Position numbers and translations under genes: made by a program. Below the pieces are notes generated by a model that ran no database searches, was not told the origin of the DNA, and saw only the letters and a program-made list of their open reading frames with translations. Positions 3,104-16,908 of a DNA stretch of 64,000 nt are shown here, piece by piece; position 1 is the stretch's first letter, and every line of letters begins with the position of its first letter. The DNA is from an uncultured Clostridia bacterium (GTDB lineage: Bacteria > Bacillota > Clostridia > TANB77 > CAG-508): assembly GCA_947627605.1 (NCBI GenBank), contig CANQWU010000001.1, positions 6,861 to 70,860 of the forward strand, in the 5' to 3' direction.

Positions 3104-3466
3104 ATGGGAAGTGGTTTCAACTTTGAACTATACGAAATGGTATTTGAAAAATGCTTTATTCATAGTTCAAGATACAAGAACGGAAATTTACAACTTAGTT
3201 TATTTGGAATTGATCCAGAAACAAATGAAACAGCACATTTTGCAGATATAACACTAGACCAAAATCGTAGGTTATTAAAAGAAAATGAAATTGTTGTAGA
3301 CTGTCTATACAAACCTACTCTAATTCCTCAATTAAAAGAATTAGGTATTTTAAAAGAACAAATTGGTATTTGTGTTATAAACAATGTAATTTACCCTATT
3401 TATACGGTAAATTTGACAAATATTTGTAAAAAACAATACTGTATGCAAGAATTAATTGCTGCATAA
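3104..3466 (+). CDS. hypothetical protein (C-terminus ...IAA)
   Basis: ORF with RBS aaggaaaggagg; ends Ala-Ala-stop (gctgcataa). Confidence 0.5.
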   Translation: MGSGFNFELYEMVFEKCFIHSSRYKNGNLQLSLFGIDPETNETAHFADITLDQNRRLLKENEIVVDCLYKPTLIPQLKELGILKEQIGICVINNVIYPIYTVNLTNICKKQYCMQELIAA

Positions 3467-3487
3467 GAAGAAAGGAAGGTTTAAAAA

Positions 3488-4660
3488 ATGGAACAAACAA
3501 AATTAGTAAATTTACCTCTTATTGGTAATGTGCAACATGGAGAGAAAATCGACAACAAAGTAAAAGAGTATGGCTACTTTATAGCAAAAACAAAAAATAC
3601 TCATATGCAATCATACATAGAAAAATTCGATAAACTTTTTAAAGGAAAACAGAGCATTGAAATTGAATTCTTTTGTGAAGAGCCATTGACTAAAAAATAT
3701 GTAAGATATAATCAAAGTGGCGAAGTATGTCGCTGTCCTGAAAATTCAAATCAAGCAACACAAAAAGTTAAAAATGGATGGCAACAAATTGAATGTAAAG
3801 GTTCTGAATGTCAATACAGGCAAAAAAATGAAGCTGGAAAATGTGCGTGCAATCGCATAGGATGGCTAAAATTTTTAATACCTAGCATCAGTACAGACCG
3901 TATTTTTTTAATGAAAATTACAGGTCAAACCTCTATAAATCAATTAGACAATTATATTAAACTACAAAAAATTCAAGGAAAATCTATTAAAGGTCTTTAC
4001 ACTTTATTCTTATATCAAAAAGAACAGACAAATAGTTTATGCGAAACTCACAAAAATTATCTTGTTGATATCGTAAAAAAAGATGAATTTGATTCAAACA
4101 AACCAATTCCACAAAATACTCAAAATGAAAAAGAACTATCCACAATTAACACTCAAAATGTGAATAACAAAGCCGAAAAACAAAAAATAACTCAAATTGC
4201 TGCAAATAAGTCTACTACTTCTACAATTCAAAAACAAACGCAAAATGTAGAGACTGAAAAAACAGCAGATACTAAAACTACTACAAAAAGTGAGACGAAA
4301 ACATCAGCTAAAAAAGAAATAAAAAGCAAATCTAAAAAGGATAATGCAAAATCACAAGACAAAGTAACTGAAACATCTGAAAAAACTGAAAAAGTAGATT
4401 TAGATAATTGCTACGCATTATTAAGAACTTTCACAAAAAAAATCGTATATAACGGACAACCAAAAGAATATACAATGGGAGAATTTGCTGATATGAATGA
4501 CAAAATTTCTGAAATCGCTGTTAAACCTGAGGATGCTAAAGAATTATTAGAATGCGATTTAGGAACATTTGTAAGACTAGAAATTAAGGATGTTGGAAAT
4601 ATAAAATTTGCAGTAAATTTAGAATTTATTGAAAAAGCTACTAAAAAAATAGCAGCATAA
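3488..4660 (+). CDS. hypothetical protein with Cys-rich zinc-ribbon-like N-domain and K/T/E-rich low-complexity linker (C-terminus ...KIAA)
   Basis: CRCPENS...C.GSECQ...CAC motifs; RBS gaaggaagg; ends AA-stop. Confidence 0.5.
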   Translation: MEQTKLVNLPLIGNVQHGEKIDNKVKEYGYFIAKTKNTHMQSYIEKFDKLFKGKQSIEIEFFCEEPLTKKYVRYNQSGEVCRCPENSNQATQKVKNGWQQIECKGSECQYRQKNEAGKCACNRIGWLKFLIPSISTDRIFLMKITGQTSINQLDNYIKLQKIQGKSIKGLYTLFLYQKEQTNSLCETHKNYLVDIVKKDEFDSNKPIPQNTQNEKELSTINTQNVNNKAEKQKITQIAANKSTTSTIQKQTQNVETEKTADTKTTTKSETKTSAKKEIKSKSKKDNAKSQDKVTETSEKTEKVDLDNCYALLRTFTKKIVYNGQPKEYTMGEFADMNDKISEIAVKPEDAKELLECDLGTFVRLEIKDVGNIKFAVNLEFIEKATKKIAA

Positions 4661-4771
4661 GCAGGAGCTCTTATACTACTATTCATAAAAGTTGCAAATC
4701 TTAACTTTACTTTATTATACATAAATAAAAATCAAAAGTAAATATTCAAGTAAAAAAAGGAGAATTTTGCC

Positions 4772-4981
4772 ATGTTTAATGAATTTAAGAACGGCAGTAA
4801 GGTTATTGTAAATGGAACAGGGCAAAATAATGGAAAAGTCTATAAAAATGTACCTGCAAAAATAATTGAGCGAGATCCTTATTATTTGGACTATCATGTT
4901 CAATTCAAAGATGGCACAGAAGATTGGATTTTACCAAAAGATTTACGAAAACCTTACTCTAGGAAAGGAAAAAGGAGATAA
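4772..4981 (+). CDS. small hypothetical protein (69 aa)
   Basis: ORF with RBS aaaaaggagaatt, immediately upstream of the ATPase gene. Confidence 0.4.
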   Translation: MFNEFKNGSKVIVNGTGQNNGKVYKNVPAKIIERDPYYLDYHVQFKDGTEDWILPKDLRKPYSRKGKRR

Positions 4982-4985
4982 AATT

Positions 4986-14775: not shown

Positions 14776-14883
14776 AATTTTAAAATAACAAAAAAAGATT
14801 AAATGTAATTGAATTCTAATTTTATGTAAGGAAGTATCTATTTACTTCCTTTTTATTAAATAAAGAAAGAAAGGAAGAAAAAT

Positions 14884-15243
14884 ATGTGTAATATAAGTAA
14901 CTATGAATTTTATAAATCCCATCACATTTGCGTGAGATGTGGACAAGAAAAAGCAGAAAGGAATAATACCCTATGTTTTAGATGTAGGATAAAAAGTAGG
15001 GAATCAGCATTAAAGTATTATAATCAACATAAGGAAGAAATGAAAGAAACGAGTCGTATCAAACATAAATTAAGATATAATAAATTAAAAGATTTAGGTT
15101 TATGTACTTCTTGTGGAAAGCGTAAAACAACTAACAATAGAGTTATTTGCGACCATTGCAGGTTAAGAAAAAATGCTCGTAATAGAAAAAAATACTTATT
15201 AATGGTGTATGCTAAAAGAAATTTATGTGATATTCGAATATAA
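14884..15243 (+). CDS. zinc-ribbon protein (3 x CxxC), hypothetical nucleic-acid-binding
   Basis: CVRCG...CFRCR...CTSCG...CDHCR motifs in a basic protein. Confidence 0.4.
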   Translation: MCNISNYEFYKSHHICVRCGQEKAERNNTLCFRCRIKSRESALKYYNQHKEEMKETSRIKHKLRYNKLKDLGLCTSCGKRKTTNNRVICDHCRLRKNARNRKKYLLMVYAKRNLCDIRI

Positions 15244-15266
15244 AATCGAAAGGAGTTAATATTATT

Positions 15267-15590
15267 ATGGTTATTGAATACGAAATAAACAAATTTGTTA
15301 CAGAAAAATGCAAAATTGAAATAGAAGATTCTAAAAATATATTTTTAAAGGGTCAAAATCGATATGATGGATTAAGTACCTATTTTGGTATATGGACCAC
15401 TGAAAAATATATTGTCATTGCAACTATAATTAGTAATAAAAATATCAGTTATGAGTATTCTCTGGATAAAAATATATATACAACTATTGATATAAAAAAA
15501 TATTTAGAATTTAATAGAAATGTGCAAGTTATAACTAAAAATGAGTTTAAGGAACAATTAAAAAGTTTTCTATCAGTAGTCAAAATGTAA
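15267..15590 (+). CDS. hypothetical protein
   Basis: 107-aa ORF with RBS aaaggag. Confidence 0.35.
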   Translation: MVIEYEINKFVTEKCKIEIEDSKNIFLKGQNRYDGLSTYFGIWTTEKYIVIATIISNKNISYEYSLDKNIYTTIDIKKYLEFNRNVQVITKNEFKEQLKSFLSVVKM

Positions 15591-15832
15591 TAAGGAAGTA
15601 GTTTTTCTACTTTCTTATTTTTGTTAAAAGAAAGGGTGATTTCAAATGAATAATGTCAAAGAAATACAAATTGATTTTGTAATTATACCACATGAAAAGC
15701 AAATATATATTTCTGAAGAAAATACATCTGGTTGTAAATATCAATATAAAAGTAAGCATGATATATCAAAAGTACTAGAAAAATACTTGTCTTTATATCA
15801 CAATGAAATATAAAATTTGAAAGGATGATTTT

Positions 15833-16908
15833 ATGGATAAGTTAGATTATCAAGAAATAATAAAGCATATAAATATATTAAATGTTGCTTATCATCTATG
15901 CTTAGAAATTGTAGAAGAAAGAGGATATGAAACTAAAGTAATTTGCCCATTTTGTCGGATATAATAAAAATAGCAAAATACCAACAATGAGCTTAAATTG
16001 TCAAACAAATAAATATTGTTGCTCAAGATGTGGTGCAGGTGGTTATTCAATTGGATTATATGCTAAAGTAAAATGTATTGACACTAAAAAATCCTATAAA
16101 GAATTACTAGAAAGAGAATGTTTTTCTCCGAATAAATCTCCAATAGAAATTAGTCCTATTAACTTATTAGCAGATATTAAATTAAGGGATGCAATATATA
16201 GAGAATTTTTAGGAATGTTAAAACTAGAAAGCAATCATAAAAAATACTTAAAAAATATGGGTTTTTTGGAAAGTTCTATTGAAACTGATTTATATAGAAG
16301 TGTTCCAAAAAATTATATAAAAAGAAGATTGGTAAGTTATAGCTTGTCAAGAAAATTCAATTTAGCACGGAATACCTGGTTTTTTTCAAGAGGAAGATTT
16401 TAAGTGGTGTTTCAATAGAATTGATGGATTTTTTGTCCCTGTATATGACCAAAATGGATTAATACAAGGACTTTCTATACATCTAGACAGGCCATTTAAT
16501 AATACTTCTGACATATGGTTTTCTAGCAATAATAAAATTAATGGCACAACTGCAAGAAATTGGCTTATGGAAAATAATATAAGTGAAAATACTTCAACTC
16601 TATATTTAGCAGACAGTTTCTTACTAGGAAACTTAATTAAAGAAACCGTAAATTTACCAACAATAGCATTTCAAAATATTACTAATTCATACAGTATCCT
16701 AAAAGAAATAGAGAAAACAAACATTACAAATATTACTTTTGTGTTAAGAATACCACAATGTAATCAGAATTTAGATTATATTATAAGGCGTGTGTTTAGA
16801 GATTTACTACCACTCGGTTATAATTTAGATACAAAAATAATTAGAAGTTATAGAGATTTTTTTGATGAAGATTTTAATGTAGATTATACATTAAATAAAG
16901 CTGCCTAA
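15833..16908 (+). CDS. DNA primase-like protein (CHC2 zinc finger + Toprim-like domain), two +1 shifts at CGG 15956-15958 and 16368-16370 (C-terminus ...NKAA)
   Basis: First shift: CPFC-[CGG]. The +1 frame gives G-YNKNSKIPTMSLNCQ...CCSRCGAGGYSIG (CHC2 finger). Second shift: ...FNLA-[CGG]. The +1 frame stays open for 164 nt and joins the in-frame ORF 16567-16908 (IPGFF...FFVPVYDQNGLIQGLSIHLD...). Confidence 0.7.

Follow-up and report, generated by a model that had tools for sequence, protein, structure and literature searches.

Ala-Ala and Val-Ala C-termini recur across a gene module of Clostridia mobile elements and may act as ClpXP-type degrons

Introduction

Why would neighbouring genes for quite different proteins all stop on the same two residues? 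The question is raised by a stretch of 64,000 nucleotides from an uncultured Clostridia bacterium (GenBank assembly GCA_947627605.1, contig CANQWU010000001.1, positions 6,861 to 70,860; hereafter the window). An initial annotation, made from the letters alone, had pointed to seven proteins ending in Ala-Ala within a gene block at 3104-16908 and had proposed that these ends are built-in degrons related to the ssrA tag or, alternatively, a nucleic-acid signal that happens to overlap the stop codons. Here we follow these tails through the window, through related loci and through distant homologues, and weigh what might read them; they are selected as protein sequence on a module of establishment, recombination and anti-defence genes, and they may be degrons of the ClpXP type.

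Results

Terminal Ala-Ala and Val-Ala are concentrated in one gene block

All seven Ala-Ala ends were recovered, on seven + strand open reading frames (ORFs) within 3104-16908 whose stops lie at 3466, 4660, 6686, 7965, 10228, 14044 and 16908. Other details of the initial description needed adjustment. Six of the seven were said to be spelled GCTGCATAA/TAG, which is true of five, the ends at 4660 and 16908 being written GCAGCATAA and GCTGCCTAA; and in place of about 28 genes our own tally, restricted to + strand ORFs of at least 60 amino acids, gave 23 for the block. Window proteins contain 4.2% Ala at a window G+C content of 26%, and measured against their Ala-Ala dipeptide frequency of 0.0021 (0.21%) the seven ends among 23 ORFs correspond to a binomial P of 3.7e-14. 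No other window gene was thought to end in Ala-Ala, and none of the 61 remaining ORFs does; two further block genes that had been missed, at 10627-11313 (..NNVA) and 11707-13173 (..NKVA), end in Val-Ala directly before the stop. With these included, 9 of 23 block ORFs end in AA or VA (P = 1.2e-15) compared with 0 of the 61 elsewhere (Fisher P = 2e-6). The Ala-Ala tail observation is real, and it is stronger than first described.

The tail is conserved on eight unrelated families in related loci

A genome scan with an alignment of ArdC, one of the tagged proteins, returned 50 loci from uncultured gut Clostridia of 23-27% G+C (L001-L050). These loci share a syntenic order, family 11 - Gp3-like - family 12 - ATPase - DUF3846 - S6-like - SSB - family 9 - family 8 - PcfK - PcfJ - ArdC - primase-like, set between flanks that differ from one locus to the next. 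No other C-terminal dipeptide comes close to AA (224) and VA (108) in frequency there. Counted over the 50 loci plus the window, AA or VA ends 329 of 824 + strand ORFs of the module (40%) versus 2 of 471 outside it (0.4%; Fisher P = 2.6e-74), and the two exceptions sit right at the edge of the module.

Eight mutually unrelated families keep the tail, with AA or VA in 42/51 members of ArdC, 47/50 of PcfJ, 33/44 of the primase-like family, 42/43 of the ATPase, 32/41 of the Gp3-like family, 37/40 of family 9, 39/39 of DUF3846 and 27/38 of family 11, and SSB, the S6-like family and others are never tagged. Scattered members of at least eight further families, among them PcfK, family 8, family 13 and the DUF4942 methyltransferase present in the modules of relatives, carry the tail as well, and it has thus been gained repeatedly.

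Within the window the tagged genes follow this order on the + strand. Family 11 is represented at 3104..3466 by a protein of 120 amino acids ending ..QELIAA (GCTGCATAA), which has no match in Pfam or PHROGs and no assigned function, and whose orthologues end in AA in 27/38 cases and in AS in 3/38. Next come a Gp3-like protein of 390 amino acids, assigned through Pfam (PF18897; 3488..4660; ..TKKIAA, spelled GCAGCATAA), with 29 AA, 7 AV and 3 VA ends among 41 orthologues, and an SbcC/Rad50-like ATPase (AAA_15/AAA_23) at 4866..6686, ending ..AEKKAA, whose length of 606 amino acids depends on an uncertain TTG start and whose 43 orthologues end 33 times in AA, nine times in VA and once in IA. The DUF3846 protein (7549..7965; 138 amino acids; ..LFKIAA) has 34 AA and 5 VA ends among 39 orthologues, and its Pfam domain stops at residue 95 of 138. 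Family 9, which matches phrog_3489 of unknown function, is encoded at 9953..10228 (91 amino acids; ..IMKEAA, stop TAG; 29 AA and 8 VA of 40 orthologues). The two Val-Ala genes code for a DUF2786/DUF7168 protein of 228 amino acids (10627..11313; ..INNVA), a family that is small in this data set with seven members (1 VA, 2 IA), and for a PcfJ-like protein of 488 amino acids (11707..13173; ..LNKVA), whose 50 orthologues divide into 24 VA and 23 AA ends plus a few others.

The ArdC-like protein, with an ArdC-N single-stranded-DNA (ssDNA)-binding domain and a metallopeptidase motif, occupies 13187..14044 (285 amino acids; ..ELELAA, stop TAG). Its 120 database homologues, 68-100% identical to it, finish 73 times in AA, 40 times in VA, 4 times in AS and once each in IA and TA, the sole remaining sequence (P0096, a 327-amino-acid outlier) ending in RI; the residues ahead of the terminal dipeptide vary among them. 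The last tagged frame, 16567-16908, had been taken for a primase gene but is the C-terminal fragment of a CHC2 zinc-finger primase-like pseudogene with two frameshifts (15833..16908), which ends ..LNKAA (GCTGCCTAA). A tblastn search with the intact 357-amino-acid orthologue of L014, which carries the Pfam domain Zn_ribbon_DnaG, found the window gene spread over three frames; intact orthologues are about 357 amino acids long, and the 44 members of the family include 29 VA, 4 AA, 3 TA and 2 AS ends.

Interspersed with these are genes that end otherwise. A ribosomal-protein-S6-like gene (7987-8271, +; Pfam Ribosomal_S6, E = 4e-30) and an SSB (single-stranded DNA-binding protein) gene (8290-8715, +; ending DDDLPF) are both untagged; SSB orthologues end in PF in 42/45 cases, and the S6-like family has acidic or amide residues at its C-terminus. 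These two genes are internal controls, and the tail is family-specific. The PcfK-like protein, which carries the NCBI name AcrIIA9 family, is likewise untagged in the window (11339..11707, +; ending ..KK), and its orthologues have gained VA or AA in 9/47 cases. As a separate observation, the placement of the S6-like gene immediately upstream of SSB mimics the chromosomal rpsF-ssb order; the S6-like gene is kept in 44 of the related loci, and a second S6-domain protein of 215 amino acids is found in some of them, such as L007 (4670-5317, E = 2e-11).

The tail is selected as protein rather than as DNA

The shared spelling of most window tails left room for a conserved nucleic-acid feature, such as a processing, recombination or restriction site of the form GCTGCATAA, that merely overlaps the stops. 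Five of the seven window tails share the spelling GCTGCATAA/TAG, the embedded GCWGC is a palindromic 5-mer, and the 9-mer GCWGCMTAR occurs eight times in the window against 1.8 expected, a count reached in none of 100 shuffles. Seven of these eight copies are the Ala-Ala stops themselves, so that the motif shows no enrichment away from stops; the eighth, at 57397-57405 on the minus strand, ends no ORF of 20 or more amino acids.

Orthologues removed what room there was. The tails of the eight families are written with 30 different terminal 9-mers, and this synonymous variation points to selection on the protein and not on the DNA. The Ala codons at positions -2 and -1 track genomic usage (GCA 0.55, GCT 0.36), with all four Ala codons, four Val codons and all three stop codons in use, and relatives of 55-60% GC write their tails with GCG or GCC and TGA stops. 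When sequences were anchored at the C-terminus, entropy was 2-3 bits from -3 to -14 and fell to about 0-1.8 bits (mostly below 1.5) at -2 and -1, and outside the two codons neither flank is conserved, which led us to reject an extended DNA motif around the 9-mer. We also rejected the motif as part of the downstream ribosome-binding site, which lies apart from it and accompanies untagged genes as well. Nor does the frequent GCA in last position amount to a special signal, because NNT codons are generally depleted before stops, at 25% of last codons in untagged genes versus 38% internally. From the sequences, selection acts on the amino acids of the tail, and the nucleic-acid alternative, refuted by the diversity of 9-mers, by codons in proportion to genomic usage and by the use of all three stops, is vanishingly improbable. 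We also noted that TGA is rare after AA or VA in L001-L050 (4/300, against 155/1323 for all ORFs there) and freely used after AA in the GC-rich relatives.

The tail residues coincide with ClpX C-terminal signals

Across the 346 members of the eight families, Ala occupies position -1 in 310 (90%), the others having mostly Val, Ile or Ser there. Where the last residue is Ala, the one before it is Ala in 212, Val in 88, Thr in 5, Ile in 4 and Ser in 1, so that Ala or Val accounts for 300 of 310. Although one nucleotide change in an Ala codon can produce Asp, Glu, Gly or Pro, none of the four is found at -1. Further in, position -3 is hydrophobic in 53% of AA tails (background 30%), and in VA tails Lys or Arg fills position -4 in 49% and position -3 in 43% (background 15%). 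An element-specific choice between AA and VA was considered and rejected: within an element, the form carried by one protein does not co-vary with that of the others (P = 0.22), which is compatible with one reader recognising both tails.

Proteins trapped by ClpXP in Escherichia coli define two C-terminal signal classes of ClpX, the ssrA-like C-motif-1 with the ends LAA, NAA, PAA and EAA, and the MuA-like C-motif-2 with RRKKAI (from MuA), RAKKVA (from YbaQ), HIKKAS and HARKVA (PMC9775585, Table 2). In Bacillus subtilis, green fluorescent protein bearing an ssrA-derived LAA, LVA or AAV tail is 50-200-fold lower in stationary phase (PMC5009755), and thus both LAA and LVA work there. For such signals AA and VA are the stronger terminal pairs, and AV, AS and AI are weaker ones. 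The module tails resemble the ssrA tag and both motifs in several respects: every tail directly abuts its stop codon and presents a free carboxylate at the extreme C-terminus, the last two residues are small and non-polar with Ala last and Ala or Val penultimate, acidic residues are not tolerated, and the residues before them are hydrophobic at -3 in AA tails or basic at -3/-4 in VA tails. At the level of sequence, the tail rules coincide with both ClpX signal classes defined in E. coli.

Tails extend to distant relatives of one module class

When the ATPase was compared with the full database, 112 full-length representatives were obtained with identities of 24-45%; 68 of them end in Ala (40 AA, 20 VA), 12 in AG and 5 in AS. 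They form two groups, one shorter and ending ..E-V-x with a variable last residue, the other longer and ending K-A-[A/G/S], with a low-complexity, Pro/Ala-rich extension ahead of K-A-A. Related modules in other genomes carry tails as well. Locus L060 (60% G+C) has AA on 7 of 13 genes, including Prok-E2_D, Rad52, ATPase, CHC2 primase and DUF6744 proteins, and in L063 (41% G+C) and L064 (54% G+C) the genes next to K-A-G ATPases end in TA, VA, FA or AA. In the cultured Subdoligranulum variabile TSDC17.2-1.1 (OY725881.1; 55% G+C) a module of order JAB-ThiF-...-Rad52-ATPase-primase, located around 119-132 kb and flanked by metabolic genes, has 14 genes; the end is AA in five of them, AG in two, and TA, CA and AS in a single gene apiece. 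A lambda-exonuclease/RecD/PcfK/PcfJ/LigA block on Vescimonas fastidiosa pMM35_02 has a pair of small residues (AA, SA, AS, VA or NA) at the end of 8 of 10 genes, seven of them with Ala last. In both the Vescimonas and the Subdoligranulum case the tail-rich module lies in a small integrated element with no type IV secretion system (T4SS) within 6-15 kb, which fits a host-encoded reader.

Some high-GC relatives also encode JAB, ThiF-type E1 and Prok-E2_D proteins (L060 101-7174, L064 1074-1730, L066 7188-9331), and in L060 a 62-amino-acid protein ending ..KEAA directly follows the E1 gene and could be a small modifier of that E1.

Searches of phage and plasmid collections returned little of this kind. 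The block had no match in them by megablast, a scan of IMG/VR with the ArdC alignment found no relatives, tblastn of DUF3846 against phages gave nothing, and ArdC matches in contigs labelled 'Bacteriophage sp.' belong to other architectures and have no tails. The plasmid pCLK has only ..SA and ..IA ends. The tail pattern itself is present from 23% to 60% GC, and on these sequences it characterises a single class of Clostridia element modules, integrative and in many cases conjugative, and not the protein families as such, and is independent of base composition.

The module lies in an integrated, partly decayed element

The block belongs to an integrated, partly decayed and probably conjugative element. 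Just upstream of the module lies a tyrosine recombinase gene (1249..2049, -), probably the integrase of the element. A Gram-positive-type conjugation cluster, partly decayed, occupies 27665..45714 on the strand opposite to the module, and none of its genes ends in AA or VA. Genes for PrgI (44003-44296, -), a sortase (37718-38305, -) and a SpaA/thioester adhesin of 1039 amino acids (33718-36837, -) look intact. The VirB4-type ATPase gene is broken into short ORFs over 41736-43315 (-), one of which is a P-loop fragment at 41736-42209, and the gene for the coupling protein VirD4 is broken in the same manner (29876-31637, -); given these fragmented genes, the element seems to be decaying. Beyond the cluster is a tRNA-Met gene (45941-46016, -), and some 190 bp from it a copy of about 42 nt of its 5' half, with two mismatches, lies at 46207-46250; this copy may be an attachment-site remnant at the right edge of the element.

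We located no origin of transfer (oriT) or relaxase in the window. The intergenic region upstream of the module (2568-3104) holds no informative inverted repeats, and a promoter and terminator scan combined with an inverted-repeat search upstream of the module yielded nothing usable for oriT or ssDNA promoters. Large flanking ORFs of the related loci, examined with Pfam for a relaxase or T4SS, gave only surface proteins, ABC transporters, a methyltransferase and a group II intron reverse transcriptase. Neither a transfer-messenger RNA (tmRNA) gene, by a tRNA/tmRNA scan, nor clpX is contained in the window or the 50 loci.

Three further features are recorded here in their own right. A HEPN-domain gene recognised through Pfam and PHROGs (9108-9557, +) is overlapped by an ORF of 82 amino acids, the pair spanning 8867-9557 (+); both are unique families absent from the related loci, and they may be an inserted HEPN-type toxin-antitoxin pair. 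In L048, a divergent relative, a group II intron-type reverse transcriptase (RVT_1 + HNH; 5375-7261) is inserted within the module. Finally, an unusual protein of 948 amino acids (58848-61694, -) fuses a Sigma70 region 4 domain to an RNA polymerase alpha C-terminal domain.

Discussion

The tails are best explained as built-in, ssrA-like degrons of the ClpXP type spread across an establishment, recombination and anti-defence module, a reading that draws on sequence comparison and that we consider to have an even chance of being correct. The degron proposal of the initial annotation gains from amino-acid-level conservation across orthologues and from residue rules that match those of ClpX signals; the remaining steps, with ClpX or ClpXP as the reader, degradation in place of remodelling as the outcome and a transient pulse of activity as the rationale, we infer. 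As the reader of carboxy-termini of the form x-[A/V]-A, ClpX is the most economical candidate. Under this model the consensus x-[A/V]-A-COOH would have been selected independently on many unrelated module proteins with functions in recombination, replication and anti-defence (Gp3-like, SbcC-like ATPase, DUF3846, PcfJ, ArdC, primase-like and others). In the host, the axial pore of the AAA+ unfoldase ClpX would take up the free end, be it Ala-Ala or Val-Ala, and ClpX would unfold the tagged protein and pass it to ClpP. The module would thereby yield short-lived products, active only while it is being transcribed, for instance after entry or induction of the element.

Degrons of this form have precedents. 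RecN of E. coli and CtrA of Caulobacter carry C-terminal Ala-Ala degrons, and replacement of Ala-Ala by Asp-Asp is the standard stabilising control for them. In Firmicutes, several Ala residues in a row at the C-terminus send a protein to ClpXP for degradation, as with the Ala tails that RqcH adds in Bacillus subtilis (cf. PMC11317155). Those tails are added post-translationally to stalled chains, whereas the module tails are encoded and only two residues long. The untagged SSB may belong in the same picture: a study of a ClpXP motif in Streptococcus mutans reportedly had an SSB as its substrate and C-terminal LPF as the motif, and if that holds the module SSB, with its DDDLPF end, may by analogy also be a ClpXP substrate. 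The Streptomyces sigma factor sigma-AntA offers another Ala-Ala degron (PMC7142297), and a unique ClpXP degradation motif in S. mutans has been reported (PMC5143411). In sigma-AntA, RecN and CtrA, as here, a genome-encoded Ala-Ala end sits on a regulatory or DNA-repair protein and there makes it a ClpXP substrate, a likeness that for the module is one of sequence. The natural ClpX signals differ from the module tails in being isolated cases on single proteins, one per regulon, whereas here about 40% of a module, on at least eight unrelated proteins and in many elements, is genome-encoded with the tail and new genes are repeatedly tagged.

Several observations weigh against a degron. K-A-G ends, found in about 11% of the distant ATPase homologues, are not a documented ClpX signal. 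Homologous modules without tails occur in two IMG/VR phage contigs (L058, L059), on an Enterococcus pheromone-type plasmid and on a C. botulinum plasmid (Rad52, ATPase, DUF3854), where tails number 0 of 18. Such tail-less modules sit in hosts with ClpXP, and the tail tracks element type, as secretion or an element-specific reader would also explain. In an AlphaFold2 model of the ArdC-like protein, of moderate quality (mean confidence score, pLDDT, of 69), the tail caps a long C-terminal helix with pLDDT around 50 over the last residues and is not clearly disordered.

The most direct competitor is export, in which the coupling protein of the T4SS of the element, or of a helper, would read the tail and the proteins would be injected into the recipient with the DNA. 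The window element has PrgI, VirB4 and VirD4 fragments, a sortase and an adhesin, its T4SS machine proteins are themselves untagged, and homologues in phage contigs and on the non-mobilizable C. botulinum plasmid lack the tail. Proteins of the tagged kinds are moreover transferred, or have been proposed to be, in Gram-negative systems: the ArdC N-domain is said, by Belogurov in 2000, to resemble the transport region of the TraC1 primase, and the F-type T4SS moves primases, SSB, PsiB and ParB (PMC8406263). The resemblance to T4SS signals extends to a signal common to unrelated conjugative-element proteins and to overlapping protein classes (primase, ssDNA-binding, anti-restriction). The signals themselves differ. 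Known C-terminal T4SS signals are unstructured stretches of 20-50 residues that are positively charged or rich in Glu, and we know of none that depends on an invariant terminal dipeptide. In the module conservation is limited to the last two residues, and over the final 20 residues the net charge of tagged proteins (+0.88) is no higher than that of unrelated flanking genes (+0.74). No relaxase with such a tail was found, and the Vescimonas and Subdoligranulum modules keep their tails without a T4SS nearby. The window tails are also intact despite the broken VirB4, VirD4 and primase genes, a weak point, as the decay may be recent. Export therefore seems to us distinctly unlikely. Somewhat more generally, integrative and conjugative elements of Clostridia could be using x-[A/V]-A as a minimal sorting signal that had gone unrecognised. 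Read by a coupling protein or another receptor associated with the element, it would direct the recombination, replication and anti-defence proteins as a group into the recipient, or to tail-dependent modification, and not to proteolysis; we regard this as unlikely but worth keeping in view.

The tail might instead be a docking peptide for another reader of C-termini, be it one encoded by the element, such as a hub protein of the module or, in relatives with JAB, ThiF and Prok-E2 genes, an E1-like enzyme, or be it ClpX acting as a non-degrading remodeller. That the tail follows element type and not host would suit such a reader, and the neighbouring SSB, with its conserved DDDLPF peptide, illustrates how a C-terminus can serve interaction alone. 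E1 enzymes activate a C-terminal Ala or Gly in ubiquitin-like conjugation, and the A-G and G-A ends of distant ATPase homologues resemble the small-residue C-termini that they use; JAB, ThiF and Prok-E2_D genes do adjoin AA-tailed proteins in high-GC relatives. They do so only there, in L060, L064 and L066, and neither Pfam nor PHROGs shows an E1, E2 or JAB domain in the window module or in the 50 close relatives, where the tails are strongest. No PDZ-like or other C-terminus-binding domain was identified in module proteins, and a co-evolving, element-specific reader predicts AA/VA co-variation within an element, of which there is none. We rate this docking function as improbable. Very improbable indeed is that the tails have no specific function and are a by-product of termination context, base composition, shared ancestry or chance. 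Translation termination efficiency does depend in part on the final residues and codons, and orthologues are not statistically independent; set against this, the tail reaches 40% of module genes versus 0.4% outside in the same genomes, untagged genes of the same operons end normally, the eight families are unrelated and the tail was acquired sporadically in at least eight more, the pattern is constant from 23% to 60% GC, and the mutationally accessible Asp, Glu, Gly and Pro are missing at -1.

Returning to degrons as the preferred explanation, the setting in which they would act resembles the anti-defence 'leading regions' of conjugative plasmids, reportedly described by Samuel et al. in 2024. 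The module genes are all co-directional on the + strand and include ArdC, SSB and a PcfK/AcrIIA9-family protein, with orphan methyltransferases in relatives, and thus show the enrichment in anti-defence and ssDNA functions typical of such regions. The module, which is at most a putative leading region, differs from them in also carrying recombination and replication genes. A shared C-terminal tail is, to our knowledge, not a described property of leading regions, and we found no prior description of a module-wide C-terminal Ala-Ala in the literature on leading regions, integrative and conjugative elements and anti-restriction proteins. C-terminal Ala-Ala degrons are already known; the tagging of about 40% of a module across at least eight unrelated families does not seem to have been described.

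In practical terms, a co-directional gene cluster ending in [AV]A is a cheap sequence marker both for this module type and for newly recruited genes in unannotated genomes, and Subdoligranulum variabile TSDC17.2-1.1 is a cultured carrier of a tail-rich module. Should the tail prove to be an export or modification signal, Gram-positive conjugation would have its first minimal C-terminal sorting motif. As degrons, the tails would let a family of mobile elements control a whole module of anti-restriction, anti-CRISPR-family, recombination and priming functions post-translationally, through a quality-control signal borrowed from host ClpXP. This would provide a simple route to the short burst of establishment functions thought to be needed when an element enters a cell, and host ClpXP activity would be predicted to influence horizontal gene transfer in gut Clostridia.

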